From Pseudomonadota bacterium (GTDB lineage Bacteria > Myxococcota_A > UBA9160 > UBA4427): DNA of 64,000 nt. The stretch lies in contig JAKSBN010000391.1 of the NCBI GenBank assembly GCA_022361175.1, positions 8,457 to 72,456 on the forward strand, read 5' to 3'. The notes below the pieces were generated by a model. It worked only from the letters and a program-made list of their open reading frames with translations. It did not search any database and was not told the origin of the DNA. The position numbers were made by a program, and so were the translations under genes. Positions 20,478 to 50,999 of the stretch are shown piece by piece. The stretch's first letter is position 1. Each line of letters begins with the position of its first letter.

Positions 20478-20484
20478 GACCCGG

Positions 20485-29972: not shown

Positions 29973-30067
29973 GGAGTCTGCCTCCCCTCGTGCCTCGGGC
30001 CAGGGCCCGGGCATTCGACGCGACTCGGCCGTGCGGGACCGAGGTCGACGTCCTGCGTTGTTGCCCA

Positions 30068-31397: not shown

Positions 31398-32868
31398 AGC
31401 CGTTGGGGCGCGGCTCCGCGACTTCGTCGGGCGCCGGCCCGGCGTCGCGCGAGTTTCCTCCCGCGCGGTTGCGGGGCCGCCGCGCCTGCTTGGGCAGCCG
31501 GTGGGCCAAGCTGTAGAGCGCTCCGGACATGAAGATCGGATAGCTGCTGTAGAAGCCGTTGGGCAGCTGGTCGAGCGCGCGGACGATCACGATCAACATC
31601 AGGCCGGCCATCAGCGCGCGGTCGCGGCGGCTGCGGATGCGTCCGAGGGATCGGAAGCCCAGGACGACGGGCAGCACGTAGAGGCCGAAGGCGCAGATGA
31701 AGCCCACCATCCCGCGACTGCCCAGCTGGATGATCCAGTAGCCGTCGGGCACCGACGGGGGGATCCCCGTCTCGGGGTCGTACACCCAGTTGCGGCTGTA
31801 GCCGCCCCAGCCGAAGACGAAGCGCTCGCGGGCCTTGGCCAGCATGCGTTCCTCGTTCTCGAAGCGGTAGTTGAGCGACTTGGCGCGGTCTTCGCTGAAG
31901 CCCGCCGAGAATTCGACGATGCCCCGCCACGGAAACAGCTCGGCCAACCGAATCGGCGGGTAGAAGGTCACGAGCACGCATCCGGCCACGGCCACCGCCG
32001 CCAGCGTGCGAACCGGAGACAACAGCAGCAGCGGATAGGCGATGACGCCCCACACCATCGCCGCGACGCTCTTGCACAGGACGAGCAGCACCGTCAGGTA
32101 GGGGGCGGCCAGCCGCCCGGTGATCGTGAACAGGCGCCGAGGCAGGGTGACCACGGGCATGCCCGCTCGGGCCAGGGCCGCGGCGGCGATCACCGCCGTG
32201 GCCATGAAGATCCCGACGGCGATGCCGCTCGGCATGAACATCATGGGCCGGTATCCGCCCCAGCGGTTGGCCTTGGCCATGGTGTTGGGATGGAAGCCGT
32301 AGGCCCAGTGGTGGAGCTGAGGGCTCATCCGCAGCTCCACGAGGATGCCGAGGGTGTACACGAGCCCCGCCAAGGCCAGCAGCGTCATCATGTCGCGCAA
32401 GTCCTTGGAGTCCCGGAAGAAGCAGCGGCCCAGGAAGAACGGCAGGCCGTAGGTGAGCGCGTCGGTGATGCAGGCCGACACCAGCTCGAAGGGCTGCATG
32501 CCCGGCACGTGTCGCGGTCCGTACCGCAGCGGGTCCATATTGGTGAAGACGGTCGCGGCGCCCCCGACGAGCATCGCCATCACCAGCCACTCGGGGACGG
32601 TGGTGCCCGGCCCCTGGCGGCGCAGGCGGCGCGGCGCCAGGTAGAGGGCCGCCGCCAGAACGCCCAGGTAGCTGATGGGCTCCTTGCCGAGGACCGGCAG
32701 CCCCGGCAGATCGAACGCGATGCGCTGGGGCAGGAACATGGCGGCGCCGAGGATCAGGCCGAAGGCGGCCACCGGCGGCCGGAAGCGGCGGAAGACGTAG
32801 AAGCAGAGCGGCACGAACAGCAGCAGCGAGAGATAGGCGAGCGGGTTGGCGTAGGCCGCGCTGTACAT
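31354..32868 (-). CDS. O-antigen ligase / Wzy-like polysaccharide polymerase (polytopic)
   Basis: About 10-12 TM helices with a large loop (RFENEERMLAKARERFVFGWGGYSRN). The start is 3 nt after the upstream stop. Confidence 0.55.
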   Translation of the reverse strand: MYSAAYANPLAYLSLLLFVPLCFYVFRRFRPPVAAFGLILGAAMFLPQRIAFDLPGLPVLGKEPISYLGVLAAALYLAPRRLRRQGPGTTVPEWLVMAMLVGGAATVFTNMDPLRYGPRHVPGMQPFELVSACITDALTYGLPFFLGRCFFRDSKDLRDMMTLLALAGLVYTLGILVELRMSPQLHHWAYGFHPNTMAKANRWGGYRPMMFMPSGIAVGIFMATAVIAAAALARAGMPVVTLPRRLFTITGRLAAPYLTVLLVLCKSVAAMVWGVIAYPLLLLSPVRTLAAVAVAGCVLVTFYPPIRLAELFPWRGIVEFSAGFSEDRAKSLNYRFENEERMLAKARERFVFGWGGYSRNWVYDPETGIPPSVPDGYWIIQLGSRGMVGFICAFGLYVLPVVLGFRSLGRIRSRRDRALMAGLMLIVIVRALDQLPNGFYSSYPIFMSGALYSLAHRLPKQARRPRNRAGGNSRDAGPAPDEVAEPRPNGFTAPPPETPIRPLR

Positions 32869-32871
32869 GAC

Positions 32872-35058
32872 TCAGCCGCGGGCACCCGGCAACAGAGGCA
32901 GGCTGCGAGCCCGGCGCCCCGTGGCCGCGTAGAGGGCATTGGCCACGGCGGGGGCCACGGGAGGCGTGCCGGGCTCTCCGACGCCGCCCGGGCGGGCGTC
33001 GCTCTCCAGCAGGTGCACCTCGACCCGCGGCGCCTCCGCGAGGCCGAGAATCCGGTAGTCGTGGAAGTTGCTCTGGGCGACGGCCCCGTCGCGGACGTCG
33101 ACCTTGCCGAACAGCGCGCCGGAGAGGCCGAAGAGCGTGCCTCCCTCCATCTGCGCGCGGACGGTGTCGGGGTGCACGACGGTGCCGCAGTCGACCGCGC
33201 ACACGATCCGGTCCACCCGGAACTCGTCTCCGTCTCCCGCGGAGACTTCCGCCACCTGGCAGACGGTCGTCTCGAAGGCGGTGTGCAGCGCGAGTCCCCG
33301 CCCGCGGCCTGCGCCCGGGGGTGCGTCCCAGCCGGCGGCCGCGACGGCGGTCTCCAACACGCGTCGTCGCCGTGGATCTCCGGACAGCAGGTGCCTTCGG
33401 AGGGCGAGCGGGTCCTTGCCGCCGGCGTGGGCGATCTCGTCCAGGAAGCTCTCGACGAAGAAGGCGGTCTGGGAGTTCCCCACGGACCGCCACCAGCCGA
33501 TGGGCAGGGCCGCCGGCACGGACGTGTATTCCACGCGCTGGTGGGGAATCGCGTAGAACCCGCGGTCCGCTCCCTCGACCGCCACGCGCGACGCGGGGGC
33601 GTCGAGCCAGTAGGGCAGCCGCCCGGTGGCCGCATCCGGCAGGGCGTCGGGGACCAGGCCGGCATCGAGCTGCCGCTGCAGCCAGCCCCCGGCCCCCTGG
33701 AGCCAGAGCGGTGAGTCGCGCGCTTCCCAGTGCGGGCCGGCGATGCGCTGCCGCAGCGAGATCGGCCACCCCTCGGCGTCCAGCTCCGCCCACAGGCGGG
33801 CCGCGAAGGCGGGCCGGTAGTAGTCGTGGCGGACGTCCTCTTCGCGGGACCACAGGATCTGCACGGGCCGGCCCACGGCGCGGGAGGCGCGGGCGGCCTG
33901 GAGGGCCGCGTCGGGTTCGAAACGACGGCCGAAGCCGCCCCCCAGGTAGGTGGTGTGGAGCCGCACTCGGTTCACCGGGAGCTCCAGCTCGCGGGCCAGG
34001 GATTCGCGCAGCCGTTTCTGCGCTTGGGTGGGAGCCCAGACCTCGCAGCCGTCCGGCCGGGCGTCCACCGTGCAGTTCTGCGGCTCCATCGTGAGGTGGG
34101 CCAGGAAGGGCACTTCGTAGTCGGCCTCGACGCGCGACGCGACGGCGCCGTGCGCAGCGGGACCGCCGTGCTCGCTGGCCGTGACCCCGGCGGTCTCCAG
34201 CTCGGCCCGGAGCTTGGCGGCGAAGGCGTCGCTGTCGAAGCCGCCCGCCGAAAACGCGGGGCGGGCGGCGTCGAGTCCGCGGCGCGCCTGCCAGTAGTGA
34301 TCGGCCAGGACGGCGATGCCGTCCGGGAGCTCCACCACTTCGCGCACGCCGGTGACCGCCAGGGCGGCCTCCCGGTCGAAGCCCTGAAGCGCACCTCCGC
34401 CCGCCGGCGCGCAGGAGACGGCGCCGTACAGCATGTCCTTCACCCGGACGTCGATGCCGAAACGAGCGCTGCCGGCCACCTTGGCGGGAACGTCGACCCG
34501 CGGCACCGAACGCCCGATCAGCCGAAAGGCAGCCGGGTCCTTCAGGCGCGGTCGCTCCGGAACGGCGAGCGCCTCGGCGCGGGTCGAGACGTCGGCATAG
34601 GCGACCCGGCGACCGCTCGCCGGATGGAGCACGTGACCTTCGGCGGTCTGGCATTCGCCCGCTGGAACGCCCAGCGCCTCGGCCCCGGCGCGAACCAGCA
34701 TCTCGCGGGCGGCGGCTCCGGCCTGGCGCAGGGGTTCGAACGATTTGCGCACGCTCGAGCTGGCCCCCGTCGACATGGGTCGCGACGGCCCCGTCTGCAC
34801 GGGAAAGGCGACGCGGACGCTCTGCCAGTCGACGTCCAGCTCTTCGGCCAACAGCATGGGCAGGGCGGTGTGGATCCCCTGGCCCATTTCCGACTTCTCC
34901 ACGAACAGGGTGGTGACGCCGTCGACGCCGATCAGAATCCAGGGACCGAGGGACGCCGGACCGGCCGCCCGGGCCGACCCCGGCGCGAACCCCAGCAGCA
35001 GCCCCGCGGTGGCCCCGCGCAGGAAGTCACGCCGCTTGAGCTTGATGAGCGCCGGCAC
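32872..35058 (-). CDS. molybdopterin-binding subunit of a xanthine-dehydrogenase-family aldehyde oxidoreductase (IorB-like), with a Tat signal
   Basis: Twin-arginine signal KRRDFLRGATAGLLLG. Family blocks: FVEKSEMGQGIHTALPM, HLTMEPQNC, TYLGGGFGRR, GEPGTPPVAPAVANA. GTG at 35058 lies 2 nt after the small-subunit stop. Confidence 0.8.
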   Translation of the reverse strand: MPALIKLKRRDFLRGATAGLLLGFAPGSARAAGPASLGPWILIGVDGVTTLFVEKSEMGQGIHTALPMLLAEELDVDWQSVRVAFPVQTGPSRPMSTGASSSVRKSFEPLRQAGAAAREMLVRAGAEALGVPAGECQTAEGHVLHPASGRRVAYADVSTRAEALAVPERPRLKDPAAFRLIGRSVPRVDVPAKVAGSARFGIDVRVKDMLYGAVSCAPAGGGALQGFDREAALAVTGVREVVELPDGIAVLADHYWQARRGLDAARPAFSAGGFDSDAFAAKLRAELETAGVTASEHGGPAAHGAVASRVEADYEVPFLAHLTMEPQNCTVDARPDGCEVWAPTQAQKRLRESLARELELPVNRVRLHTTYLGGGFGRRFEPDAALQAARASRAVGRPVQILWSREEDVRHDYYRPAFAARLWAELDAEGWPISLRQRIAGPHWEARDSPLWLQGAGGWLQRQLDAGLVPDALPDAATGRLPYWLDAPASRVAVEGADRGFYAIPHQRVEYTSVPAALPIGWWRSVGNSQTAFFVESFLDEIAHAGGKDPLALRRHLLSGDPRRRRVLETAVAAAGWDAPPGAGRGRGLALHTAFETTVCQVAEVSAGDGDEFRVDRIVCAVDCGTVVHPDTVRAQMEGGTLFGLSGALFGKVDVRDGAVAQSNFHDYRILGLAEAPRVEVHLLESDARPGGVGEPGTPPVAPAVANALYAATGRRARSLPLLPGARG

Positions 35059-35060
35059 GC

Positions 35061-35507
35061 TCAGTCCCCTCCGGCGGCGCGGCGAATCGCTCGGCGAATG
35101 CGCGGGTAGGTTCCGCAGCGACAGAGGTTGGTGATCGACGCGTCGATCTCGTCCTCGCTCGGATCGGGGTTCTCGGCCAGCAGCGCGGCGGCGGCCATCA
35201 CCATGCCCGGTTGGCAGTAGCCGCACTGGGGAACCTGCTCGGCGATCCAGGCGCGCTGCACCGGGTGGTCGGCCGCGGCGGCCAGCCCCTCGATGGTGGT
35301 GATGCGCTGGCCCTCCACCTGGCCCACCGGAACCGTGCAGGCGCGGAGCGCGCGACCGTCCACGTGCACCGTGCAGGCGCCACAGCGCCCGATGCCGCAT
35401 CCGAACTTCGTGCCCGTCAGGTTGAGCCAGTCGCGCAGCACCCACAGCAGCGGCGTGTCGGCCTCGACCGCGAGCTCGACTTCTCGACCGTTGACCGTGA
35501 GGCGCAT
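35061..35507 (-). CDS. (2Fe-2S)-binding small subunit of the aldehyde oxidoreductase (IorA/CoxS-like)
   Basis: Two cluster motifs: [11 protein letters not shown] and CGYCQPG...CRCGTY. 148 aa. Confidence 0.85.
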
Positions 35508-35563
35508 GCTGGGCCGGTTGTCCTTGGGAGGGTGGGAAGAGCGTCGCGAACCGGGAGCGGGTG

Positions 35564-36529
35564 TCAAGCCGAGCCGTTCGCCGGGCGGCGGCGCGGGAAG
35601 AGCGTGTAGCGGAGGAAGTCCCGGAAGAAGTGGGGTGGCTGGGGATAGGGCTTGCGCTGAAGCCAGCACTTGGCGCGACCGAGCAGGAAGCCCGTGATCC
35701 ACAGCGCGTTGGCCAGCCACAGCTGCAGCCGTCCGTGGTTCTTCAGCCAGTAGTGCCGGCGGCTCTCGAACCAGTAGGGCGGGCGGCGCCGGCTCCAGTC
35801 GGTCCAACCGGTGGAGGCCGAGCCCACGTGCTGGACGCGGCTGCTGGGGACGTACCAGGTCGCCCAGCCCGCCGCCTGCGCGCGCCGACAGAAGTCGGCC
35901 TCCTCGAAGTAGAGGAAGTAGCGCTCGTCGAAGGGCCCGATGGCCTCGAAGACCTGGCGCCGAATCAGCATGCTGGCGCCCGCCAGCCAGTCGACCCGCG
36001 TGTCGGTGTGGGGCACGGGTTTGGAGACCACCCAGCGATCCAGCAGCCGACTCACCACGCCGAGGCCGAGGCGGTTCTCGAACTCCGCGGGCAGCGAGTG
36101 GAAGCGAAACGCCGTGTCGTGGGTGGCGCCGTCGGTGCCGTAGATGTGGCTGCCGGCGATCCCCGCCTGGGGGTGGGCTTCGAGAAACTCCACCAGGAGC
36201 GCCAGCGCACCGGGATCGGGCTCGGCGTCGGAGTTCAGGAGGTAGACGTAGTCGACCGGCGGCCCGGTCTCGGCGGCGGCGCGCACCCCCTGATTGACTC
36301 CGTAGGCGAAGCCGCCGTTGCGAGGAGACGCCACCAGGTGGACGCGCTCCTCGGCTCCGAGATCGCGGACGGCCGCCTGGAGCTTCTCGAAGGAGCCGTC
36401 CTGCGAGTCGTTGTCCACCAGGATGACGCGGCTGCCGGGGAGCCCCTCGAGTTCGCGCAGGCTGCTCCGCAGGGCCGCCAGCGTGAGCTCGGGCGTCCGG
36501 TAGTTGATGACGACGACCGCCAGCCGCAT
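35564..36529 (-). CDS. family 2 glycosyltransferase (WbbL/rhamnosyltransferase-like)
   Basis: [12 protein letters not shown]...[10 protein letters not shown]...[11 protein letters not shown]...NSDAEP...[11 protein letters not shown]. The ATG at 36529 shares one base with the PKS stop. Confidence 0.8.
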
Positions 36530-39500
36530 CAGGTGGGGAGATCCCCTTGCTGCTCGACGGAGCGGTCGATCACCTCGCGCATCTTGGCCGCGAGCACGCG
36601 CACGTGGGGCTCGAGCACCATGCTGTCGTGGTCCCCTGTGACCTCGTAGACCTCGACGGGATTCGGCACGTGGAGCCCCCAGAGATTGTCCTCGGCGACC
36701 CACACCCGCTTGTCGTTCAGGTACATGCCGGGGCGCACCTCGTAGGCTTCGTCGAGGCTCGGGCGGAAGAGCACCAGGTGCCCGTCGTAGGCCTCCTCGG
36801 CGTAGTGGACCAACGCCTCGCGGAAGGCCTTCTCGATCTCCGAAGAGCGGAACTCGGCCGGAGACAGGTCCACCGGGGCGGCCACGGGGGCGGGCTGGCG
36901 CCGCTGGCGCTCCCATTCGATGCGGCGGCGCACCCACTCGACCAGGTAGCCGGCGCCCTTGCGCTGCAGCCGGCGCCAGTGGAGCCGCAGCAGGTCGCCG
37001 CGGGTGATGGGGGGCTGCTTCGCCGTCAGGCTGTCCAGCAGGATCACGCAGCCCACGGTCTCCCCTGCGGCGCGCAGCTGCTGCGCCATCTCGAAGGCGG
37101 TGATGCCACCCCCGGAGAAGCCACCCAGGTAGTAGGGGCCCTCGGGCTGGATCTTGCGGAGCTCCTCCAGGTAGTCCCGCGCCATGTCCGGGAAGCGTCG
37201 GTGCGGTTCGTCGTCTCCGAGCAGGCCCTTCGCCTGCACGGCGTAGACCGTCTGGTCCGAGCCCAGGTGCGTGGCCACGTGCCGCAGGTTGAGCACGTTG
37301 CCGAACATGCCCGCCACCAGGATGAAGGGCGGGCGCGAGTCGTCGCCGCGCTGGAGCGGCACCAGGTAGCGGAAGCGTTCGCGCGGCTTGGCGGCCGCGG
37401 CCTCTTCCTGTCCCAACTCGACGCCCAGGTCGTCCCGGATGAGCTCTGCGCAGCGCTCGATCGTGGGCGCGTCGAAGAGCACCGAGAGGCCGTACTCGAG
37501 GTTCCACTTCTTCTTGATCTTGGAGAAGAGCCGCACGGCGATGAGGGAGTGGCCGCCCAGCTCGAAGAAGTCGTCGCGGATGCCCACCTTGTCCAGGCCC
37601 AGGAGCTCCGCCCAGTAGGCCGCCAGGCTGCGCTCCACCTCGTCCCGCGGCTCCAGGTACTCGCTGTCCAGCTCCGGCCGCTCGAAGGCCGAGGCCTCCG
37701 CTTCGCCGCTGGGCCGGCTCGAGCGATAGCGCTCGACCAGGCCCCGCAGCTCGATGGAGGAGACGAAGAGCTGAGGCCAGCGCGTGTCGGCCAGGATCCG
37801 CTCCAGGGCATCCATGCCCTCGTCGGGGCGAATGCCCAGGTCGTACGACTCCTGGAAGACGCGCTCGGCGGCGGAGAGCCGGTGTCCGTCCCCGGCGCCA
37901 CCGTCCGTCTCGCGCGCGCCGGTCTGGCGGTCGGCGGCGAATGCCTGTTCGTCGGTCAGGCGCTTGACGGCGAACCCTTCGACTTCCACCAGCACGCGGC
38001 CGTCTTCGTCCGCGAGCGTGACGTCGAAGGTGGCCACGTCTCGGCTCTCGTCGTTGTCCGCCCGGCCGCGCGCGTGGCTCACGAAGCGCTCCGGCAAGGG
38101 GCCGTGGATGTGCACCCGGTCGTAGCCGATCGGCGCGTACAGCTGCCGCCCCGTGTAGCCGGGGATCAGCGGCGAAGCGAAGCCCGTCGCGATGTCCAAC
38201 AGCGCGGGGTGCAGGGGATGGCTCGCGAGATCGGCCCGGGCCTGCTCGCCCGCCTCGATCTCCGCCAGGGCCTCGCCGCGGCCGAAGCGCAGCACGCGGG
38301 CGCACTCCCAGCGCGGACCGAACCGCAGGTGGGCCTCCTGCGACGTGCGCACGGTGGCCCCCGCCTCGGCCTCTTGCACCTCCGGACAGCGCGCCCGGAT
38401 CGCGTCGACGTCGAGCGCCGTGGGCGCCGCCGCCGTCGTCTTGGCCACCGAGCCCTGGGCGTGGAGCTGCCATTCGCGCTCGCCCGCCAGGCGACTTTCG
38501 ACTTCGAAGTCGTGCCCCGTTGCGTCGGGCGAGAGCAGGACCCGCATTTCCACCGTCTCGCCGTCCGGGACCGCCAGGGGCGCGACGAAGAGCGCATTGC
38601 GGATCTCGACGTCCCCGGTGTCCTCGATCTCCGCCAAGGCGCCGTGTGCCAGGGCGAGATAGCCGGTTCCCGGAATCAGCGCGTGTCCGGCACCGGTCCG
38701 GTGCTCGTCCAGAATCCAGCGCGACCGGCTCTCCAGCTCGGTCGAGAACACGATCTCCTCGCCCGCGTCGAGCAGCTGCGTGTCCAGCAGCGGGTGGGCG
38801 GCGGGGCGTCCCAAGCCCTGGTCTCCCGCCAGGCGCCGATGGGTCTCGACGGCGAGGCCCACGTCCCGCCAGACGCCCCAGTCGATGGCCACCACGCGGG
38901 GGCCGGTCTGGGTGTCGCAGTGCTGGGCAAAGGCGTTCAGGAAGGTGCTGGCGGCGACATAGTCGACCTGGCCCGCCGCGCCCAGCTTGCTGCTGGTCGA
39001 GGAGAAGAGGGCGAAGAAGTCCAGCTCCTCGCCCTGGAGCAGGTCGTGGAGCAGCAGGGTGCCGTGGACCTTGGGCGCGAACACCCCTTCGATCGAGGCT
39101 TGCGTCTTGGCTTGGATCGGCCCGTCGTCCAGCGCGCCCGCGGCGTGGAACACGCCGTTCAGTTGGCCGAAGCGCTCCTTCACCGCGGCCAGGGCCTCGC
39201 GCATGGACACCACGTTGGCCACGTCGCCGGCGAGCACCAGGATCTCCGCGCCGAGCGACTCCAGCTCGAGGAGCTGCTTGAGCTTGCGCGCCGTGGCGTC
39301 GTTGGAGCCGTGGGACGCCAGCCAGGCTTCCCAGTCGGCCCGCGGCGGCAGCGGCGTGCGGGAGAGCAGCGCGAGTCGCGCGCGGCAGCGGGACGCCAGG
39401 TGGCGCGCCACCAGGAGTCCGAGGCCGCCCAAGCCCCCCGTCACCAGGTAGGCGCCCCGGTCGCGCAGGGGCGTGGCCTCGGAGTCCGGTGCCGCCAGGG

Positions 39501-42500
39501 GGGCCGGCTCGAAGTCCTCGATCCAGCGCTTGCCTTCGCGATACGCGACGGCGGCGTCGCTGTGCGCGGGGTCGGCGTCGAGGGCGATCTGGGCCGCCAG
39601 CGCGGCGGCCGACGCGTCGTTGGCCGGCAGCTCGACGTCGATGCTCTGCGCGGTGATGCCGGGCAGCTCCAGCGGCATGACCCGGAGCGGTCCCAGTACG
39701 GTGGCCTTCTCGGGATCGCGCAGGGGCTCGGAGCCGACGCGCTGCATCCCGTTGGAGACGACGGTCAAGTGGATCGCCCGCTCCACGTCCTCCCCGCCCA
39801 GGGCCTGGGCCAGACACAGCAGGCTGTAGAAGCCGTGCTCCTGGGCGCGGTGGAAGAAGCTCGAGCCGGGGCGCGCGCTGCGGTCCCGGGTGACCAGCCA
39901 GAAGTGGGCGATGCGATCGGGAAGCAGGTCCTCCTGGGCCAGCTCTTGGAAGAGCTCCGCGTAGCCCTCCAGGCCCGCTTCGGGCGACAGCGCGTAGTCG
40001 CAGTCGCCGAGCTTGTAGAACGCATCCCCCTCGCGGATGCGCACCACGCGGTGGCCCTGGGCCTCCACGTGCGCCACGAAGTGTCCGGCCAGGCCGTCCG
40101 CGTCGGCGAACACCAGCCACGTGGGAAGCGCGTCCGCGCCAGTTGCGGGCGTGTCGGTCGTGGGCAGCTCCTGGCGCCGCCAGACCGGTCGTTGGAACCA
40201 GTCGGCGATGGACTCGTGCCGCACCAGCGCCGCCTCGGCTTCCGTCGTCGCCCCAGGCGCCGAACGTCCCTCGATCCAGTAGCGCTGGCGCTCGAAGGGA
40301 TAGGTGGGCAGGGAGACCCGCCGGCGGACCTCGTCCGGACCCCGGAGGCGCGACCAATCGACGTCCACGCCGACGGCCCACGCCCGCGCGAAGGTCTGCC
40401 GCACGAAGCGGTCGTCGGGGACGTCGTCGTCGGGGTGCCGGAGCGAAGCCAGGGCCGCGCGCGGTCGCACCGGCTGTTGGCGGGCCAGGGAGCTCAGGGT
40501 CTGACCGGGCCCGACTTCCAGCAGCACGCGCTCCGCATCCGCCAGCAGCGTCTGGAGCCCGTCGGAGAACCGCACCGTCTCGCGCAGGTGCCGCACCCAG
40601 TAGTCGGGCTGGGTCACTTCCTCTGCGGCGGCCCAGGTCCCCGTGAGATTGGAGACGTACGGGCGCTGCGGCTCGGACAGCTCGATCTTCTCCACACCGC
40701 TTCGGAACTCGGGCAGGATCGGGTCGAGCAGCCGCGAGTGACCGGCTGCGGGCACGCGGAGTTCCCGCGCTTCCACGTCGTCGTCGGCCAGTTCCTTCGC
40801 CAGGGCCTCGATCGCGCCCACCGGGCCGGACACCACGCAGAACTCGGGGCCGTTGACCGCCGCGAGATCGAGATCGCTCGACATGCGTCGGCGCACCTCG
40901 TCCTCCGGCAAGGGCACGCTCAGCATGCGGCCGCCGGCACCGCCGCGCCCGACCGAATCCACCAGTTTGCCGCGCAGCGCGACCAGCGAGAGCGCATCGC
41001 CCAGGCTCATGACGCCGCACAGACACGCAGCGGTGTATTCTCCCAGGCTGTGGCCGGTCATGGCGACGGGCTCGATGCCCCACGACAGCCAGAGCTGGGC
41101 CAGGGCGTACTCGGTGGCGAAGATCGCCGGCAGGCTGTTCGCCGTGAGTGCCAAGCGTTCGCGGCCGCCTTCGCCCGAGCCGGCCTCGGGATACATGAGC
41201 GAGCGCAGGTCGTCTTCCACGTGCGGCGCCAGCAGCCGGAAGCACTCGTCCATGGCCGCGCGGAAGATCGGCTCGGTCTCGTACAGGCCCCGTCCCATGT
41301 CGACGTACTGGGCTCCGCCGCCCGGGAACATGAACACGACGGGAGCGGCGCGTTCGCCCGCGCGGCCCGAGAAGAGCCGCTTCGAGTCGGCGGCGGCCAG
41401 CTCGCGGGCGGCTTCTTCGGCGTCTCGCGCCACCAGCACGCGGCGGTGTTCGAAGCCTTCGCGGCCCACCTGAAGGGTGTGGGTGACGTCGGCGAAGGCG
41501 CGGGTCGACTCGCCGAGGAAGGCGGAGAGATTCTCGACGGCGCGGTCCGCCGCCGCCCCGGTCTTGGCCGAGACGGGAACGATCTGCCAGGGGCCCGACG
41601 GCGCCGCCGACTCTCGGGGCGGCGCCTCCTCCAGGACGACGTGGGCGTTGGTCCCGCCGACGCCCAACGAGCTCACCCCCGCCCGGCGCACCCCGGCCTC
41701 CGGCACCCAATCTCGGGCCTCGGTGTTGACCGCGAAGGGGCTCGCCTCGAAGTCGATGGCGGGATTGGGGCGCGAGTAGTTGATGCTCGGCGGCAGGCGC
41801 CGGTGCTTCAGCATCTCGACGACCTTGATGAAGCTGGCCACGCCGGCCGCGGTGTCGGTGTGCCCGATGTTGGGCTTGTTGGAGCCGATGCCGCAGAAGC
41901 CCGTCCGGTCCGTGCTGGCCCGGTAGGCCTGGGTGAGAGCCGCGACCTCGATGGGATCGCCGACGGCGGTGCCCGTCCCGTGGGTCTCGACCCAGGAGAT
42001 CGACTCGGCCGGGACGTCGGCCACCGCCAGCGCCTCGGCCACCACCTCGGCCTGGCCGTCGACGCTGGGCGCCAGGTAGCCGACCTTGCGCGAGCCGTCG
42101 TTGTTGATGGCCGAGCCCTTCACGATCGCGTGGATCTCGTCGCCGTCCTCCAAGGCGTCCGCCAGCCGCCGGAGCACCACGACGCCGACCCCGCTGGTGA
42201 GGACCGTGCCCGCGGCGCGCGCGTCGAAGGCCCGGCAGTGGCCATCGGGCGCGAGCACTTCGTTCTCGCGATAGAGATAGCCCTGGCCGTGGGGCACCTC
42301 GATGGTGGCGCCGCCCGCGAGGGCCATGTCGCACTCGCCGTTCAGCAGGCTCTGGCCCGCCATGTGGATGGCCACCAGCGAGGTGGAGCAGGCGGTTTGG
42401 ACCGCGACGCTCGGGCCCTTCAAGTCGAGCTTGTACGAGAGCGTCGTGGGCAGGAAGTCGCGATCGTTGCCCGTGTGCCGCAGCAGGAAGAGGCCGGTGG

Positions 42501-42942
42501 AGTCGACCACCTCCGGATTCCCCAGCACGTTGAACATGAAGTAGGAGTTCATGCCGCAGCCGGCGAAGACTCCCACGGACCCCTCGAACGCGCTGGGCGG
42601 ATGCCCGGCGACCTCCAGGGCTTCCCACGCCACTTCCAAGAAGTGCCGGTGCTGCGGATCGAGAATCGCGGCGTCCTTGGGACCGAACCCGAAGAAGCCC
42701 GCGTCGAACAGGGCGACGTCGTCGAGCGGTCCGCCGGCCTTGACGTAGCTGCCGTGCTCCAAAAGCTTGGGGTCCACGCCCGCGTCGCGCAGCTCGTCGT
42801 CGGAGTAGCGCTTCACGCACTCCACGCCGTCGGCCAGGTTGCGCCAGAAGCGGGCCACGTCGGGCGATCCGGCGAAGCGGCAGGAGAGCCCCACCACCGC
42901 GATGTCGGAATCGGAAACTTCGAAGTCGTCGCGTTCGCTCAT
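36529..42942 (-). CDS. single-module type I polyketide synthase, KS-AT-KR-DH-PCP-TE
   Basis: Approximate nt spans follow. KS 41623-42903 (TACSTS, ETHGTGT, NIGHT). AT 40453-41340 (GHSLGE). KR structural plus catalytic halves 38863-40125 ([16 protein letters not shown]). DH 37957-38805 ([32 protein letters not shown]). Carrier 37423-37650 (FFELGGHSL). TE 36568-37371 (GFSGG, GDHDSM). Confidence 0.95.
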
Positions 42943-43817
42943 GACCCGCCCGCCGGCTGCTCCCGGCTCGAGTGTCGTTCACCCCGTGGGTGGCCCGTCG
43001 AGGGAAAAGGGTGACATTCGCTCCCAAAACCCCTTGGGAAGCCACCCAGATCGCTCCGGGCGCCCGTTTCGGCGACCCAAACGCCGAGGGCCGCCACCAG
43101 CAGCCAGGGCACGTGGGTCAACAGACCCCGCGCCAGTGCTTCGGAGCCCGACGCCAACACCGCGGCTGCCAGCGTGACCGCCAGCGCCTGGGCGGGCAGG
43201 GCGCAGGCCGCCCAAACCGCGGCGCGCCGGCCCGCCTCGGTCAAACGGGCCCCCCGCCGCAGCGAGGCGTACCAGCCGAGACCCGCCGCCAGACAGACCA
43301 GCGAGAGACCTCCGTCGGGCGCCTCCAGCACCAGGCGTGCCGCGTCCGTCTCGAGGAAGGTCCAGGGATAGGCGGTGACCACCGAGAGGGTCGCACCGAG
43401 CGGCTCGAGCAGCAGCCGCGCGACGTGGGCGTGGAGCGTCTCGAGCCAGGGGCTCTGCATCCGCGCCAACTGGCTCGGCAGGGGAATCAGGAAGAGGGCC
43501 AGGATCCAGGTGCCGGCTCTCCCGCGTCCGGTCCAGCGGGCGAGCCCGAACGCCGACAGCCAGACCCACGGCCGAGCCAAGCGCGTCATGCCGGCGCCCA
43601 GGAACACCAGCTCCATGGCGATGCCGAGCCCCAACCACCAGAGACCGTCCCGCGCCGGGGGCCCGGGCGCTCCGTCCCGCCGCAGCTGCAACCACAACAG
43701 CGGGGCGAAGAGCAGGGCGTAGCGGGCCGGAGGGTGTTGGAGCTGGTGGACCAGGAGATCGACGACCACCGGGGAGGCCGCAACGGCCCAGGCGAGCCAG
43801 AGCAGCCGCGCCGACAT
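42939..43817 (-). CDS. polytopic membrane protein, divergent exosortase/EpsH-like
   Basis: About 8 TM helices and 292 aa. It occupies the EpsH position directly after the chain-length determinant and kinase-like genes. One Cys in a TM context (LSLVCLAAGLGW) and a late His (LLTHVPWLL). The canonical CSG and N..R signatures are not seen. Confidence 0.4.
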   Translation of the reverse strand: MSARLLWLAWAVAASPVVVDLLVHQLQHPPARYALLFAPLLWLQLRRDGAPGPPARDGLWWLGLGIAMELVFLGAGMTRLARPWVWLSAFGLARWTGRGRAGTWILALFLIPLPSQLARMQSPWLETLHAHVARLLLEPLGATLSVVTAYPWTFLETDAARLVLEAPDGGLSLVCLAAGLGWYASLRRGARLTEAGRRAAVWAACALPAQALAVTLAAAVLASGSEALARGLLTHVPWLLVAALGVWVAETGARSDLGGFPRGFGSECHPFPSTGHPRGERHSSREQPAGGS

Positions 43818-45230
43818 CTAGGCGATGCGCGAGACGGAGCCCAACACCGGAGCTCCGCTCTTGGTTTCGAGCTGATCGCCGGCCACCAACACCGGGTCCA
43901 GGAGCTCGAACAGCACCCCGAGCCCGCCGCAGAGACCGGCCGCCGCGACGAGCCCCATGGCCAACAGCTTCCAGCGCGAGTTCATGGGGCGCGTCGGGGG
44001 CCGGGCCGAGTCCATCACGCTGACCTGGGCGCCTTCCTGGGCGCTCTCGATGCTGACGGCGAGCTCGGCGTCTTTCGACTTGCGGAGGAACTCCAGGTAG
44101 CTCTCGCGCAGCACGCTCGCCTTTTCCTCCAGGGTCGCCAGCTCCTCCTGGCGTCGGGGGACCCGCGCGACCCGGGCGTCCAGCTCGGCCAGCTCCGTCT
44201 CGGTGTCGGTCAGCTGCTGGTGGAGCCGCTCCAGGGAGAAGCGCACCTCGCGCAGCAGCAGCGTGCGCGTGCTGGAGGTCGCGGGATTGTCCGCGGAGGC
44301 CGCCAGTTCCGCCTCGACGACCGCGATCCGGCGCTTCAGCGACAGCACCTGCGGGTGTTCGTCCGTGTAGATCGCAGCCGTTCGGTCGAGCTCGGTGCGG
44401 AGCTGGGCGAGCCGCGATTCGACGGAGCCGGGCTCCTGGTCGCTGGCCGCGATCATCGCCATGCGGCTTTCCGCTTCGACGATCTGATCCGACAGGGACT
44501 GCCGCTGGGCCTGCAGCCGCTCGAGCTTGCTCATCAGAGTGGGGAGCTCGGAGGGCAGCTCGCCCCGATAGCGCTCCTGAAACTCCGTGATGAGCTGGGT
44601 CTGCTCGCGCAGGGCCGCTTCGGCGCGTTCCAGCTCCTGGTTCACGAAGCGCGCGATGCGCTGCGCCTGCTCGTTCCGGGCGCGGACGCTGGCGTCGGTA
44701 AAGAAGCCCGTCAGTCGGTTCACCACCCGGGCGGCGGTTTCCGGCTCGCCGTAGGTGAACGTCACCACGAACACCTTGGACGTGGAGCCGTCACGCCGCC
44801 GGCGCCGCGGATCGGAGCCGATCTGGTCCACGACTTCGAAGCCGATCGAGCCCCGGAGCCACATCACCAATTCCCGGGCAGGTCGCTTGTCCCGCTCCTC
44901 GGGGTACAGCTGAAACTCCTCGAGGATCTCGAACAGCCGATCGCGGGAGAGCACCTCTCCCACCATGGCGTTCAGCTGCTCCAGGGGATCTTCCTGCACG
45001 GTGGAGCGGATCATCTCGTCCGGGATCTTGGCGTTGCTGACCAGGATCGAAGCCCGCGCTTGGTACGTGGGCTGGTAGAGGAGCACCGCGGCGGCGGTTC
45101 CCCCCAGCCCCACCAGCAGCCCCAGCAGCATCCACGGCCAGCGGCGCATGGGAATGCCCAGCGGGTCGCGCGCGAAGTCGGGCAGACCGCCGCCGTCCTG
45201 GAGATCCAGATCGTCGTCGTCGTAGGCCAT
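43818..45230 (-). CDS. polysaccharide chain-length determinant / co-polymerase (Wzz, GumC/EpsF-like)
   Basis: N-terminal TM (WMLLGLLVGLGG), a long coiled-coil periplasmic region, and a C-terminal TM (WKLLAMGLVAAAGLCGGLGVLF). ATG at 45230 checked in frame. Confidence 0.8.
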   Translation of the reverse strand: MAYDDDDLDLQDGGGLPDFARDPLGIPMRRWPWMLLGLLVGLGGTAAAVLLYQPTYQARASILVSNAKIPDEMIRSTVQEDPLEQLNAMVGEVLSRDRLFEILEEFQLYPEERDKRPARELVMWLRGSIGFEVVDQIGSDPRRRRRDGSTSKVFVVTFTYGEPETAARVVNRLTGFFTDASVRARNEQAQRIARFVNQELERAEAALREQTQLITEFQERYRGELPSELPTLMSKLERLQAQRQSLSDQIVEAESRMAMIAASDQEPGSVESRLAQLRTELDRTAAIYTDEHPQVLSLKRRIAVVEAELAASADNPATSSTRTLLLREVRFSLERLHQQLTDTETELAELDARVARVPRRQEELATLEEKASVLRESYLEFLRKSKDAELAVSIESAQEGAQVSVMDSARPPTRPMNSRWKLLAMGLVAAAGLCGGLGVLFELLDPVLVAGDQLETKSGAPVLGSVSRIA

Positions 45231-45232
45231 GT

Positions 45233-46171
45233 TCAGGCCTCTCGCGTGTCGCGCGGTGTTTCGTCCGAGTAGTACCCGTACCGCGCACGGTGACGCGAAC
45301 CCGGCGCGTCGTTCAGAAAACTGCCGAGCAGGACTCCGGGAGGCAGGGTCTCGACCATGTCCCGAAACGCCCCGCAGCGCGAGTGACGCGCGCGGGCGAC
45401 TGCGATGCAGGAGCGTACGTGGGGGAGCAGGATCTCCGTGTCCGGCACCAGCAGCAGCGGCGCCGAGTCGATCACCACCAGGTCGTAGCGGCTTTCCAGC
45501 TGGCGCAGCAGCTCGGGAAGCTCGGCGCGACAGAGCAGCTCGCTGGCCTGACTCTCGGGGCGGCCCACGGGAAAGATGTCGAGGCCCGGAACGTCCGTCC
45601 GGACGCCGGCTTCCTCCAGCGGGATCTGCCCCCGGAGCACCTGCTCGACCCCCGCCTCCAGGTGCGCGCCGAGATAGCGGCCGACCGAGGGGCGGCGCAG
45701 GTCCAGGTCCACCAAGGCGACGCGGCTCTCGCCGCCGAGCGCGGTCAGGGTCAGCGCCAGGTTGCAGCTGGTGGTGGTCTTGCCCTCGAGGCGGACGGCG
45801 CTCACCAGCAGGACGCTCTTCGCTTGCCGCTGGGCGAGCGTGCGCCGGACGTGGATGGCGAATTGGCGATAGGCCTCCGCAGCGGCCGACTTGGGCTCGA
45901 TCAAGGCCAGGCGCGCCGGCCACGCCCCGTCCTTGTGCCGCGAGAGGTGGATGCGGTGCGCGAGCTCGCCGCCGGCGGCAATCGACGGGACCGGTTCGGG
46001 CGCCGGGGCCGCGGCGGCGGTGCGCGGAAGCGTGGGTGCAGACGCCGCCCGGCCGGCCGGCGCCTCCACGGGCTCGGGCTGCGGGAAGGGGCCGTCGGCG
46101 CGCGTCCGCTGCGAACGCTCCTCGCGACGCTCTTCGCGAGCGCGCTTGAGGGCCTCTGCGATCTCGCCCAC
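45233..46171 (-). CDS. BY-kinase-like P-loop ATPase (CpsD/EpsG-like)
   Basis: Walker A LEGKTTTSCNLA, Walker A'/B VALVDLDLRRP and LVVIDSAP, short Tyr-containing tail RYGYYSDE. GTG start is adjacent to the upstream stop. Confidence 0.75.
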   Translation of the reverse strand: MGEIAEALKRAREERREERSQRTRADGPFPQPEPVEAPAGRAASAPTLPRTAAAAPAPEPVPSIAAGGELAHRIHLSRHKDGAWPARLALIEPKSAAAEAYRQFAIHVRRTLAQRQAKSVLLVSAVRLEGKTTTSCNLALTLTALGGESRVALVDLDLRRPSVGRYLGAHLEAGVEQVLRGQIPLEEAGVRTDVPGLDIFPVGRPESQASELLCRAELPELLRQLESRYDLVVIDSAPLLLVPDTEILLPHVRSCIAVARARHSRCGAFRDMVETLPPGVLLGSFLNDAPGSRHRARYGYYSDETPRDTREA

Positions 46172-47023
46172 CTAGCCCTCCACTCGGCTCAGCTGGTCGC
46201 GCAGGCTGGCGCCGCGCGACGCGTTCATGGACTTGGCCTTCTGCTCGACCGTGCTCACCGGGATCGGCCGTACTTCCTGGGAGTACGCCGCCAGGAGCAC
46301 GCGGTCGGCCAGCAGGCTGAGCAGGCGCGGACAGCCGGCGCTGAAGGAATAGAAGACCGACTCCGCCCCCGGCGCGAAGATGTCCTCGTAGCGCCCGCCC
46401 GCCACGTGCAGCCGGTGCGCCAGGTAGTCGCCCACGTCGCCGGGTGCCAGCGACTCCATGTGATGCTCCACGGCGATGCGCTGGCGCAGCTGGCGCAGCG
46501 AGGGCTGGGCGAGCATGTGCAGGAGCTCGGGCTGGCCCACCAGGACGATCTGCATCAGCTTCTCGGTGTCGGTTTCCAGGTTCGAGAGCAGCCGCACTTC
46601 CTCGAGCGTCTCGGGCGACAGGTTCTGCGCCTCGTCGATGATCAGCACCGTGTTCCGTCCCGCGCGCAGGCGGTCGAGCAGCACCTTGTTGAGCGCGATG
46701 ACGTAGTCCGCCTTCGACTCGAAGTTCCCCTCGATCCGGAATTCGGCGGCGATCAGTTTCAGGAGGTCGATGGCGGTCAGGTTGCCGGTGTTGAGGACCA
46801 GCGCGACATCGGTATCGGGCGAGAGTTGGTCCAGGGCGGCGCGCAACAGGGTCGTCTTCCCCGTGCCCACCTCACCGGTCAGCAGCAGGAAGCCCTTGCG
46901 GCGGGAAATGCCGTAGACGAGCGCTGCCAAGCCTTCCTGGTGGGTGTCGGACAGCCACAGGAAGCGGGGATCCGGGGTCAGCGCGAACGCCGGCTCGCGT
47001 AGGCCGAAGAATGCCTCGTACAT
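46172..47023 (-). CDS. ExeA/GspA-like AAA ATPase (PEP-CTERM-locus secretion ATPase-like)
   Basis: MYEAFFGLREPAF start, Walker A TGEVGTGKTT, Walker B VLIIDEAQNL, and LVGQPEL. Confidence 0.8.
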   Translation of the reverse strand: MYEAFFGLREPAFALTPDPRFLWLSDTHQEGLAALVYGISRRKGFLLLTGEVGTGKTTLLRAALDQLSPDTDVALVLNTGNLTAIDLLKLIAAEFRIEGNFESKADYVIALNKVLLDRLRAGRNTVLIIDEAQNLSPETLEEVRLLSNLETDTEKLMQIVLVGQPELLHMLAQPSLRQLRQRIAVEHHMESLAPGDVGDYLAHRLHVAGGRYEDIFAPGAESVFYSFSAGCPRLLSLLADRVLLAAYSQEVRPIPVSTVEQKAKSMNASRGASLRDQLSRVEG

Positions 47024-47375: not shown

Positions 47376-47391
47376 CGGCATGTGCCTTGCA
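47376..47391 (+). promoter_or_regulatory. candidate sigma-54 (-24/-12) promoter cGGCATgtgccTTGCa
   Basis: GG at 47377-78 and GC at 47389-90 have the exact 10-nt spacing of the TGGCACG-N4-TTGCW consensus. It faces the sugar transferase gene 219 nt downstream. Confidence 0.45.
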
Positions 47392-47609: not shown

Positions 47610-49013
47610 ATGCTACGGGAACACAAGCGGCAGCTCTATTGGGCATGGATGGCCACCGACCTGGCCATCGGCACCAGCGTATTCATCTCGTTGGTCTTCC
47701 AGCCCGCGCTTCAGCGCGACGGCTTCAGCGAAGGCGGCGTGGCGCTGGCTGCACTGGGGGCCGTCGTGTGCCTGGCCTGGCCGCTGATCTTCGAACGGCT
47801 GGGCGTCTACGCCTCACAGCGCCGCGAGAGCTTGGGCGGCCTCCTGGGCTCGCTCGCCGCTGCCCACGCCTTGGGCGCCATGTGCCTCTCCGCGGTCGCC
47901 TTCACCCTGGACGCCCGGGTCGCGCCGCTCTTCCCCTTCATCTACGCGGCCACGGTGTTCGGCCTGCAGGGCAGCATGCGCGTGGTGGTGTTCTCGGTGC
48001 TGCGGGCCGTGCGGCGCTCGGGCGGAAACTTCCGCAACGTGCTCATCATCGGGGCGGGCCCCCGGGCCGCCGAGGTGCGCGCCACCATCGAGGAGCACCC
48101 GGAGTGGGGCCTGCGCATCGTCGGCTACGTGGACGACGGCGGTGGCGAATTCGTGCCCCGCGTGCCCGCGGAGGAGATCCACAAGCTGATGGATCTCCCC
48201 ACCTTGCTGCGCGACGAGAACATCGACGAAGCGTTGGTGGCGATCCCGCGGACGATGCTGCCCTTCATCACTCCGGTGGTGCGCGAGTGCGCGCTGGTGG
48301 GCGTGCCGGTCACGCTGTTGACCGACCTCTTCGGCGATCAGCTGCCGCCTCCCCGGGTGGGGCGCTTCGACTCCCTCGCCACGCTGAGTTTTGCCCCGGT
48401 TCACCACAACGACATCGAACTCGGCATCAAGCGCAGCCTGGACATCGCGGGAGCGACCGCGGTCCTGTTGCTCACCGCGCCGTTGCTGCTCCTGTCGGCT
48501 CTGGCCATCAAGGTGTCGTCGCCGGGGCCGGTGCTGTTCCGCCAGGTGAGAAGCGGGCTCCACGGACGTCGCTTCAACATGCTGAAGCTCCGCACCATGT
48601 GCATGAACGCCGAGTCCATGAAGGCGGAGCTCTTGCACCTGAACGAGATGGACGGGCCGGTCTTCAAGATCAAGGACGACCCCCGGGTCACGCTCGTGGG
48701 CCGAGTGCTGCGCCGCTTCAGCATCGACGAGCTGCCGCAGCTGTGGAACGTGTTGCGGGGAGACATGAGCCTGGTGGGTCCGCGACCTCCCACGCCGGAC
48801 GAGGTGTGTCAGTACGTGGGAAGCGACCGCCGCCGGCTGTCGATGCGGCCCGGGATCACGTGCCTGTGGCAGATCAGCGGGCGCAACGAAGTCTCGTTCG
48901 TCGAATGGATGAAGCTCGACCTCGAGTACATCGACAACTGGTCGTTGGCCGAGGACGTGCGCATCCTGATCCGCACGATCCCCGAAGTTCTGCGAGCGCG
49001 CGGCGCCAGCTGA
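47610..49013 (+). CDS. undecaprenyl-phosphate sugar phosphotransferase (WbaP/EpsB-type priming enzyme)
   Basis: N-terminal TM bundle, central Rossmann-like NVLIIGAGPRA, and C-terminal bacterial sugar transferase domain (KRSLDIAGA...SPGPVLFRQVRSGLHGRRFNMLKLRTM...DELPQLWNVLRGDMSLVGPRP). Confidence 0.9.
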   Translation: MLREHKRQLYWAWMATDLAIGTSVFISLVFQPALQRDGFSEGGVALAALGAVVCLAWPLIFERLGVYASQRRESLGGLLGSLAAAHALGAMCLSAVAFTLDARVAPLFPFIYAATVFGLQGSMRVVVFSVLRAVRRSGGNFRNVLIIGAGPRAAEVRATIEEHPEWGLRIVGYVDDGGGEFVPRVPAEEIHKLMDLPTLLRDENIDEALVAIPRTMLPFITPVVRECALVGVPVTLLTDLFGDQLPPPRVGRFDSLATLSFAPVHHNDIELGIKRSLDIAGATAVLLLTAPLLLLSALAIKVSSPGPVLFRQVRSGLHGRRFNMLKLRTMCMNAESMKAELLHLNEMDGPVFKIKDDPRVTLVGRVLRRFSIDELPQLWNVLRGDMSLVGPRPPTPDEVCQYVGSDRRRLSMRPGITCLWQISGRNEVSFVEWMKLDLEYIDNWSLAEDVRILIRTIPEVLRARGAS

Positions 49014-50426: not shown

Positions 50427-50575
50427 CGTTCGAATGCTCTTTTCCAATTTGGTTCCCCTCTGCTTGGTCGACGGGCGCCCCACACGGAGCGCACGGCGGT
50501 CGTATACCGCGAAACGCCGCGGGGGCCAGCTTACACGGTGCGAGGGCGGGGCTGAGGCGGAGGAGAAAGGGTGGG

Positions 50576-50890
50576 CTAGCCGAGGGTCTCGAATCCGAAG
50601 CGGGTGTGGCCGACCTGGATCTCATCGCCGGTCTCGAGTGTGGCGGATCGGACCCGCTTCCCGTTGACCTTCGTGCCGTTGGTCGATTGGAGATCCTCGA
50701 CCAGGAAGGTGTTTTCGTCTTCGTCGTAGAGGATGAGGGCGTGCTCGCGGCTGATGCCCTCGTCGAGGAGCGTGATGTCCGTAGTCGGGTTGCGGCCGAT
50801 CAGGGTCTCTTCGGAGACGAGGTCGTACGTCATGCCCTCGAAGCCGCCGTTCAGGATCCGGAGCCGAGCTTTGGGCGCTGCATCGGACAT
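50576..50890 (-). CDS. stand-alone FHA-domain protein (104 aa)
   Basis: LIGRNPTTDITLLDEGISREHALI...LVEDLQSTNGTKVNGKRV. Confidence 0.85.
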   Translation of the reverse strand: MSDAAPKARLRILNGGFEGMTYDLVSEETLIGRNPTTDITLLDEGISREHALILYDEDENTFLVEDLQSTNGTKVNGKRVRSATLETGDEIQVGHTRFGFETLG

Positions 50891-50999
50891 GAGCTCTCCA
50901 GCGGGGGGATCCGGGCCTCTGGACGGCCGCGCGGCTCCCTCCTGCCGGCGCTATCGGCCCCGTTGGCCCGGGGCTTGAGATGCTCGATGCCGACAACCG

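Follow-up and report, generated by a model that had tools for sequence, protein, structure and literature searches.

A polyketide synthase of KS-AT-KR-DH order, from an orphan NRPS-PKS family, in a polysaccharide export operon beside a triad-less exosortase-like protein

Why should a complete type I polyketide synthase (PKS) be encoded in the middle of a polysaccharide export operon, next to a membrane protein that resembles exosortases, and what could such an enzyme contribute to an exported polymer? The question is raised by a locus of contig JAKSBN010000391.1 (assembly GCA_022361175.1, a metagenome-assembled genome (MAG) of the Myxococcota_A lineage), which we analysed within a 64-kb stretch (positions 8,457 to 72,456 of the contig), hereafter the window; all statements on the absence of genes apply to this window. 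An initial annotation of the sequence had recognised the PKS, an adjacent GT2 glycosyltransferase and an exosortase-like protein, and had proposed an iterative synthase wired to exosortase-type sorting. We herein show that the synthase combines an unusual domain order with intact active sites, and that its family recurs beside polysaccharide export genes in several phyla. With moderate confidence, we favour a one-module hybrid line of nonribosomal peptide synthetase (NRPS) and PKS enzymes making an amino-acid/polyketide unit for an exported glycoconjugate; the synthase probably helps to decorate or prime the exported sugar polymer, rather than to sort proteins. Because the G+C content of the window is about 70%, its lists of open reading frames (ORFs) are noisy, and the real frames were picked by third-position GC (GC3).

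Domain order and affinities of the synthase

The PKS gene (36529–42942, minus strand) is a continuous ORF of 2137 codons with a GC3 of 0.92. Pfam places a ketosynthase (KS) at residues 12–389, a KS-AT linker at 392–518, an acyltransferase (AT) at 536–840, a structural ketoreductase (KR) subdomain at 943–1108 followed by the catalytic KR at 1163–1360, a dehydratase (DH) in two parts (1383–1484 and 1510–1666), a PP-binding domain at 1773–1835 and a thioesterase (TE) from 1887 onwards, while NCBIfam adds a "KR prefix" domain at 913–1001. Since these boundaries put the KR ahead of the DH, the order KS-AT-KR-DH-carrier-TE read earlier from motifs is real and holds at the level of domain hidden Markov models (HMMs); a DH-before-KR arrangement hidden by misplaced HMM boundaries is ruled out. 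The sole PP-binding domain is the one C-terminal to the DH, and no acyl carrier protein (ACP) domain lies between AT and KR. All motifs previously quoted for the KS, AT, KR, DH, carrier and TE are present, and the catalytic residues do not vary among 104 aligned full-length family members (KS C185, H321 and H361; AT S632, R657 and H735; KR Y1328; DH H1414 and D1583; carrier S1799; TE S1943, D1970 and H2105). The AAGHS of the AT, which had been noted as atypical, is a family trait with the consensus [I/A]-A-[A/G]-H-S, and the KR carries the Asp of B-type enzymes. Moreover, the KR-DH-carrier order is colinear in the 104 relatives, among which the canonical modular order of DH, an optional enoylreductase (ER), KR and ACP was not seen. 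The public protein record of the same MAG (locus tags MJE66_; P0004) holds only a 960-aa product, equal to PKS residues 1178–2137; compared with the continuous ORF of the window, this may reflect an annotation split or a sequence difference.

The closest relatives of the individual domains point to modular and hybrid enzymes. Among solved structures, the KS-AT region scores best with 8xjy/8xju (757 bits), which are deposited as "polyketide synthase" beside colibactin entries and are probably ClbI, followed by 7zma (680 bits), CurL (590 bits) and DEBS (about 510 bits); its KS (Cys-His-His) and AT (Ser-Arg-His) form a didomain that fits the modular type. Among solved or curated relatives, PksJ-type KRs come nearest to the KR, and the DHs of CurF and CurH to the DH, while the carrier and TE most resemble the ends of NRPSs formed by a peptidyl carrier protein (PCP) and a TE (AB3403, EntF). 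The carrier-TE part also aligns, over a longer stretch but more weakly, with the ACP-TE of Pks13, whose TE transfers its product to trehalose. The PKS scores 1052 bits with a general type I PKS model, versus 377 bits with the PfaA model TIGR02813 (cutoff 1010), and the 60 solved relatives ranking highest for the KS-AT or KR-DH regions include no polyunsaturated fatty acid (PUFA) or enediyne synthase. Since each domain resembles those of modular or hybrid NRPS-PKS enzymes, we do not place the PKS among the PUFA/enediyne synthases; as judged from these comparisons, the KR-before-DH order is a genuine peculiarity of the family, with no sign of membership in either group.

These results bear directly on the proposal of an iterative synthase of the PUFA or enediyne kind, whose product, a long acyl chain with double bonds or hydroxyl groups, would serve as a lipid anchor or aglycone of the polymer, as proposed for WcbR and RkpA. 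With PfaA and PksE the PKS shares the KR ahead of the DH, the lack of an ER and the single module; additionally, it has no loading domain, no NRPS-like loader was found in the window, and type I PKS genes are known in capsular clusters (PMC3908369). Unlike PfaA and PksE, however, it carries its carrier after the DH and not between AT and KR, ends in an NRPS-type PCP-TE, and shows low similarity to the PfaA model; of the partners characteristic of such enzymes, no chain-length factor (CLF), FabA-type DH, ER or phosphopantetheinyl transferase (PPTase) domain was seen. In most relatives, moreover, amino-acid-activating loaders are adjacent to the PKS (69 of 80 loci, see below). We therefore consider the iterative long-chain synthase put forward in the initial annotation unlikely.

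Synthase neighbours, starter loading and the proposed pathway

The PKS is embedded in a string of minus-strand genes running from 47023 down to 31354. Its first gene encodes an AAA_22 ATPase (46172–47023, ATG at 47023) resembling the XrtA/PEP-CTERM-associated ATPase (PF13401, E 7e-28; TIGR03015, 273.6 bits, cutoff 324.5), the stop of which directly abuts the GTG start of a BY-kinase-like P-loop protein (45233–46171; TAG followed by GTG with zero gap at 46172/46171). The latter shows a Walker A motif (EGKTT), DLDLRRP, a Walker B motif and a C-terminal YGYY (TIGR03018, 106 bits, cutoff about 230; TIGR01007, 80.6 bits), and its TGA is separated by 2 nt from the ATG, at 45230, of a Wzz-like chain-length determinant, or polysaccharide co-polymerase (43818–45230; TIGR03007, 161 bits, cutoff 279; weak PF02706). 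The TAG of the Wzz-like gene adjoins, at 43818/43817, the ATG of the exosortase-like gene (42939–43817, 292 aa), whose stop overlaps the PKS start as ATGA at 42939–42942; the PKS stop in turn shares a base with the start of the GT2 gene (TGATG at 36529), so that the GT2 (35564–36529; PF13641 and PF00535) is translationally coupled to the PKS. Both overlaps are in the sequence as first described, and so are the tight junctions of the whole string, the single larger break being a 56-nt gap (35508–35563) after the GT2 gene. Behind this gap lies what had been taken for a single molybdenum enzyme and is actually encoded by two genes: a 148-aa 2Fe-2S small subunit of the xanthine-dehydrogenase family (35061–35507; CGxGxCGAC and CGYCQPG motifs) and a molybdopterin-binding (MoCo) large subunit (32872–35058, GTG start at 35058; PF02738 and PF20256) with a twin-arginine (Tat) signal (RRDFLRGATAG). 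Such a 2Fe-2S and Tat-exported MoCo pair is of the IorAB/aldehyde-oxidase type. The TGA of the MoCo subunit is followed, after 3 nt, by the ATG (32868) of the last gene of the string, a Wzy/O-antigen-ligase-like polymerase (31354–32868; PF04932, E 5e-5, under the gathering score).

A search with residues 900–2137 returned 1671 proteins at E<=1e-20, and the best 120, which we inspected, are nearly all 2125–2167 aa long with an identical Pfam set and come from Myxococcota, Planctomycetota, the Roseobacter group and others. When the GTDB species, each represented by one genome, were scanned with two family-specific TE peptides as query, at least 600 stretches matched, at least 584 of them encoding PKS relatives; the family is thus present in at least 584 species genomes, including Myxococcota, Planctomycetota, Rhodobacteraceae, Burkholderiales, Spirochaetaceae and Acidobacteriota. 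By its sequence, the PKS belongs to the family of the conserved NRPS/PKS/glycosyltransferase/PPTase cluster of roseobacters (Martens et al.), which was reported in 28 of 57 genomes surveyed in 2015, its product being uncharacterised (PMC4337385). The PKSs of Ruegeria, Pelagimonas, Roseovarius and others are 42–46% identical to that of the window over the C-terminal 760 aa.

We then asked which genes accompany the family, searching six-frame ORFs of the best 80 PKS loci with the window proteins and an HMM of the exosortase-like family. An NRPS-like gene is present in 69 of them, a GT2 gene in 61 and a PPTase gene in 49; Wzz-like, kinase-like and ATPase genes are found in 34, 23 and 10 loci, respectively, with at least one of the three in 44, and a Wzy homologue in 11. 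Wzx homologues, counted over all fetched PKS loci, accompany 33. The NRPS-like loader consists of an amino-acid adenylation (A) domain (TIGR01733, 462 bits) split by a luciferase-like monooxygenase of the MupA/Atu3671 type (LLM; TIGR04020, 490 bits). The Wzz-like, BY-kinase-like and AAA-ATPase genes stand beside the PKS in Rhodobacteraceae, Burkholderiales, Myxococcota and Spirochaetaceae, and the gene orders differ. In Burkholderiales, an ATPase homologue lies directly upstream of the PKS in eight of nine loci, whereas in Rhodobacteraceae the Wzz-like and kinase-like genes come after the PPTase; in Ruegeria arenilitoris, the PKS is followed by a GT2, a 1540-aa Formyl_trans-AMP-binding-luciferase-AMP-binding-PP protein and a PPTase, and a divergent trio of AAA_22 ATPase, Wzz and CbiA/ParA-type genes adjoins this cluster. 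Some lineages also carry Wzx, Wzy, priming transferase and outer-membrane polysaccharide export (OPX) genes beside the PKS, and in certain Myxococcales (loci L020 and L022) Wzy, Wzx, PKS, GT2, PGT, OPX and the NRPS-like gene are interleaved. A Myxococcota MAG (L002) has the order Bac_transf, Wzz-kinase, canonical exosortase, EpsI, NRPS-like, PKS, PPTase and GT2, with a MoCoBD gene several genes further on, and a Fer2 and MoCoBD pair homologous to that of the window is found in L087.

That these neighbours are kept despite the rearranged order argues for a functional link between the PKS and the export genes, and a recent insertion of the PKS into an exopolysaccharide (EPS) locus is excluded, as the same association is seen in related loci with a differing gene order. 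The tie of PKS and GT2 to a polysaccharide export locus, as first proposed, is further borne out by a relative (P0121, on a 465-kb contig), a single 1878-aa ORF comprising the part of the PKS that begins with the AT, a linker of about 40 aa and the GT2; this ORF is either a true fusion or the result of a lost stop codon.

The same neighbourhoods speak to another explanation, according to which the NRPS, PKS and GT2 genes make a diffusible glycosylated metabolite (a signal, antibiotic or surfactant) that is not attached to the polymer, their location reflecting shared regulation, sugar precursors or export. Genome miners handle the cluster as an ordinary NRPS/PKS biosynthetic gene cluster (PMC4337385); among named proteins, the GT2 comes closest to the small-molecule glycosyltransferase MftF, though with no more than 61 bits; and in the loci of Planctomycetota, Gammaproteobacteria and Acidobacteriota, which hold NRPS-like, PKS and PPTase genes, export genes are rare or absent within 10 kb. 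Since these loci are mostly without export genes in view, the link is not universal. Nevertheless, we find this explanation doubtful, given that Wzz-like, kinase-like or ATPase genes accompany the PKS in four groups of phylum or class rank in spite of rearrangement, and that the PKS of the window is translationally coupled on both sides inside an export operon.

The earlier statement that there is no loading module holds for the PKS polypeptide; however, about 13.7 kb past the PKS stop, on the same strand, lie genes for an AurF-family diiron oxygenase (23112–23972; PF11583, E 8e-47), a stand-alone (type II) peptidyl/acyl carrier protein of 83 aa (22861–23112) and a stand-alone, DltA-like amino-acid A domain of 532 aa (21254–22852; TIGR01733, 349.6 bits, cutoff 317.4). 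Pfam gives nothing for the carrier at E<=0.001; among solved structures it is nearest to PltL (E 5e-6), with ACPs and D-alanyl carrier proteins ranking next. The A domain scores about 262 bits with DltA models and 222.6 bits, under the cutoff, with the exosortase-A-associated ligase model TIGR03098. The stop of the AurF-like gene overlaps the start of the carrier gene (TGATG), and the ATG of the A domain follows 11 nt after the carrier stop. L087 holds the same trio alongside an NRPS-like loader, together with a GDSL gene and the Fer2/MoCoBD pair, and in L008 an AurF-like gene adjoins the A gene. Because L087 carries both, the trio is a recurrent accessory arm of the Myxococcota-type cluster, which in the window may prime the PKS or may acylate the polymer directly. 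For the same reason, its interpretation as a split replacement of the NRPS-like loader is less likely.

We propose the following course for the hybrid line. An amino acid would first be activated by adenylation and loaded onto a carrier. The formyltransferase-A(LLM)-PCP protein would do so in most relatives; in the window, the sole candidate is the stand-alone A domain with the type II PCP beside the AurF-like oxygenase. One PKS condensation with a malonyl-type extender would follow, after which the B-type KR and the DH would leave the NRPS-style carrier with an alpha,beta-unsaturated acyl chain. The TE would release this chain, either hydrolytically or by passing it on to a sugar, the coupled GT2 could glycosylate the product or build its sugar acceptor, and the exported polymer would finally carry the unit as its substituent, cap or primer. 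While the domain order, the intact active sites, the coupled translation, the synteny across phyla and the lost exosortase triad are shown, we infer for this scheme which starter is used, how many rounds of extension take place, how the chain is released and what accepts it in the end.

Several observations weigh against the scheme. No homologue of the NRPS-like (F-A-LLM-PCP) gene or of the PPTase was found at E<=1e-5 in the 64-kb window, and the trio, coexisting with an NRPS-like loader in L087, may serve another step. Iterative action would be possible for a single module that has no ER, and the unusual AT motif allows no prediction of the extender unit. Additionally, export genes are scarce in the planctomycetal, gammaproteobacterial and acidobacterial loci, the synteny within Rhodobacteraceae is partly inherited and to that extent does not count as independent evidence, and the product is known for no member of the family (PMC4337385).

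The exosortase-like protein

The membrane protein encoded between the Wzz-like gene and the PKS, which we call ExoL, matches no Pfam or NCBIfam model (none for PF09721 or TIGR02602 at E<=0.1), and its link to exosortases comes from its relatives, since it is they, not ExoL, that match PF09721 (18 of 45 aligned relatives, best E 7e-12). Six to seven of the 45 also match exosortase NCBIfam models weakly, none reaching the cutoff. An exhaustive HMMER search collected at least 335 cluster representatives (50% identity) at E<=1e-3. Exosortases are defined by the motifs Cys-x-Gly, Asn-x-x-Arg and His-x-x-x-Gly (Haft 2006, PMC1569441), and an alignment to the canonical exosortase of L002 showed that ExoL lacks all three. 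In place of Cys-x-Gly it has D168 within D-G-G, the Asp being found in 76% of the family at a position that is otherwise variable, with some members free of Cys altogether; Asn-x-x-Arg is replaced by Q210-A-L-A, in which the Gln is invariant and the Arg absent; and His-x-x-x-Gly by T-H-V-P-W-L, a nearby His being present in about half of the family with no Gly at +4. The residues R82, G91, P112, P114, G170 and Q210 are invariant in the family. An AlphaFold2 model shows an all-helical membrane protein (pLDDT 90.9), and sequence and fold searches against the PDB, which offers no exosortase structure for comparison, gave no relative.

Since the Cys, Arg and His triad is lost, transpeptidase-type sorting by ExoL appears unlikely. 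We conclude from the alignment that ExoL probably belongs to the exosortase superfamily without being catalytic, or is at any rate no Cys-transpeptidase, and that it more likely acts as a membrane scaffold or binding partner. With its three motifs lost and no PEP-CTERM-like tail found by a regular-expression search of the window, the proposed wiring of the pathway to exosortase-type sorting was not borne out.

ExoL is not a one-off. Counted from the PKS side, every PKS-adjacent ExoL with the motif region on its contig (L003, L018, L030, L051 and L075) shows the triad-less pattern; in these loci and in L012 ExoL comes after the Wzz-like gene and is followed by EpsI, except in L012, where the contig ends inside ExoL. 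Canonical motifs are kept in L002 and in one Planctomycetota locus. Exosortase-EpsI pairs are found at PKS loci of Myxococcota and Spirochaetes, and in L002 and L006 they stand just upstream of the NRPS-like and PKS genes, while in L042 and L087 EpsI alone is visible upstream of these genes, at the contig edge. EpsI normally follows the ExoL relatives, whereas in the window it is the PKS that follows directly, and no EpsI homologue was found there. Pairs of a triad-less exosortase-like protein and EpsI are also present in EPS loci where no PKS is visible (L004 and L005), hence the subfamily is not confined to PKS loci. This undescribed triad-less subfamily, which usually keeps its EpsI partner, bears on the real roles of exosortase-family proteins and of EpsI.

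That the locus is a decaying remnant making nothing, having lost its loader, PPTase and EpsI beside a dead exosortase, would agree with the absence of these three genes from the window, the missing triad and the shortened public protein record, yet it is quite improbable considering the uninterrupted PKS ORF with its high GC3, the retained catalytic residues and tight junctions, the conservation of the triad-less form, and the fact that the losses were scored in 64 kb, with about 10 kb of the contig and the remaining genome lying outside.

Going beyond the favoured hybrid line, one may speculate that the loader, the KS-AT-KR-DH-PCP-TE synthase and the GT2 constitute a dedicated cross-phylum machinery for capping, priming or anchoring exported polysaccharide with an amino-acid/polyketide unit, and that in Myxococcota and Spirochaetes a triad-less exosortase has been repurposed, together with EpsI, from protein sorting to the handling of a polyketide-bearing glycoconjugate; we put this forward only tentatively. 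If true, it would give the long-orphan roseobacter NRPS/PKS cluster a function and establish exosortase pseudoenzymes of a new class. The recurrence of the family beside chain-length, kinase, ATPase, flippase, polymerase and exosortase genes makes a testable hypothesis, namely that the product should be sought on the exported polymer and not in culture extracts.

The surrounding island and comparison with known systems

The operon forms the centre of a polysaccharide island that spans about 48 kb and has a Wzx/Wzy-type pathway. A Wzx/MOP flippase is encoded at 25426–26829 on the minus strand (PF13440, E 8e-47; NF007773), a priming polyprenyl glycosylphosphotransferase, divergent from the operon, at 47610–49013 on the plus strand (PF02397; TIGR03025, 381.9 bits, cutoff 295.6), and an OPX protein (Poly_export and SLBB) at 49719–50621 on the minus strand. 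The island further encodes five other glycosyltransferases (three GT2, one GT4 and one PMT_2/GT-C), a DegT aminotransferase, a methyltransferase and a 2-oxoglutarate (2OG) oxygenase. A GT2 weakly similar to polyprenyl-phosphate sugar synthases (ArnC-like, 34 bits) and a PMT_2/ArnT-like GT-C transferase, encoded one after the other at 18834–21243 (minus strand), look like a periplasmic glycosylation pair. Four genes for GDSL/AlgX-like SGNH proteins (6701–7846, plus; 11021–12193, minus; 12262–13635, plus; 30300–31397, plus) suggest, by their number in one island, extensive O-acylation of the polymer. Between the Wzx and AurF-like genes lies a gene for a 353-aa protein without Pfam or NCBIfam match (24239–25300, minus), homologues of which are found near the PKS in L006 and L008, and a secreted PKD-domain protein with a signal peptide (28017–30050, minus) ends in 12 Gly and TAPAPPVLLP, with no PEP-CTERM-type anchor. 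Promoter, terminator and Rfam scans of the window gave nothing informative. A sigma-54-like -24/-12 motif (cGGCATGTGCCTTGCA) is present at 47377–47391 (plus strand), upstream of the priming transferase, and 4 kb away an ORF with a sigma-54 activator domain (51907–52824, minus) lies next to an FHA-domain gene (50576–50950); proteobacterial PEP-CTERM loci have been reported to be sigma-54 dependent (PMC1569441).

Several known systems resemble parts of this locus. The capsules made with WcbR and RkpA are exported by ABC transporters. Their type I PKS genes, known from the capsular polysaccharide clusters wcb of Burkholderia and rkp of Sinorhizobium (PMC3908369), are likewise mono-modular and lie among genes for polysaccharide biosynthesis and export, a likeness of architecture and setting. 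Unlike these clusters, the window holds Wzx, Wzy, Wzz-like and OPX genes, with no ABC transporter among the genes scanned, and the partner of the PKS in the family of the window is of NRPS type.

The XrtA/PEP-CTERM (EpsH) EPS loci (PMC1569441) share with the window an ATPase, a chain-length determinant, a tyrosine-kinase-like protein, a priming transferase and a membrane protein of the EpsH family. The XrtA-specific models are the best or among the best matches here, yet all stay under their cutoffs: TIGR03013 (213 bits, cutoff 393) does so in the same way as TIGR03015, TIGR03007 and TIGR03018 (scores above). These loci also offer a precedent for acyl- and amino-acid-activating enzymes, including the associated acyl-CoA ligase (TIGR03098), and N-acyl amino acid synthases have been linked to PEP-CTERM systems (Craig et al. 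2011, as cited in PMC12078418). They differ from the window, in which the EpsH homologue has no catalytic triad, EpsI and PEP-CTERM proteins are missing, and a full type I PKS stands in place of a simple ligase and ACP. As to the accessory arm, its A domain and carrier form a pair of the PltF/PltL or DltA/DltC kind, the carrier being nearest to PltL and the A domain scoring on DltA models; unlike those pairs, it is coupled to an AurF-family oxygenase.

The closest counterpart is the roseobacter cluster, which is described with four genes only (PMC4337385). Its PKS has the same length (about 2140 aa) and a colinear architecture, with a GT2 directly downstream, whereas the window has neither the NRPS-like gene nor the PPTase and adds the exosortase-like gene upstream, the 2Fe-2S/MoCo pair downstream and the separate AurF/PCP/A trio. 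The PKS cluster itself is already known but orphan. In the literature that we searched, no paper connects the PKS family with an exosortase or with polysaccharide export, or names its product, and the initial remark that no exosortase-PKS coupling had been described appears to be right.

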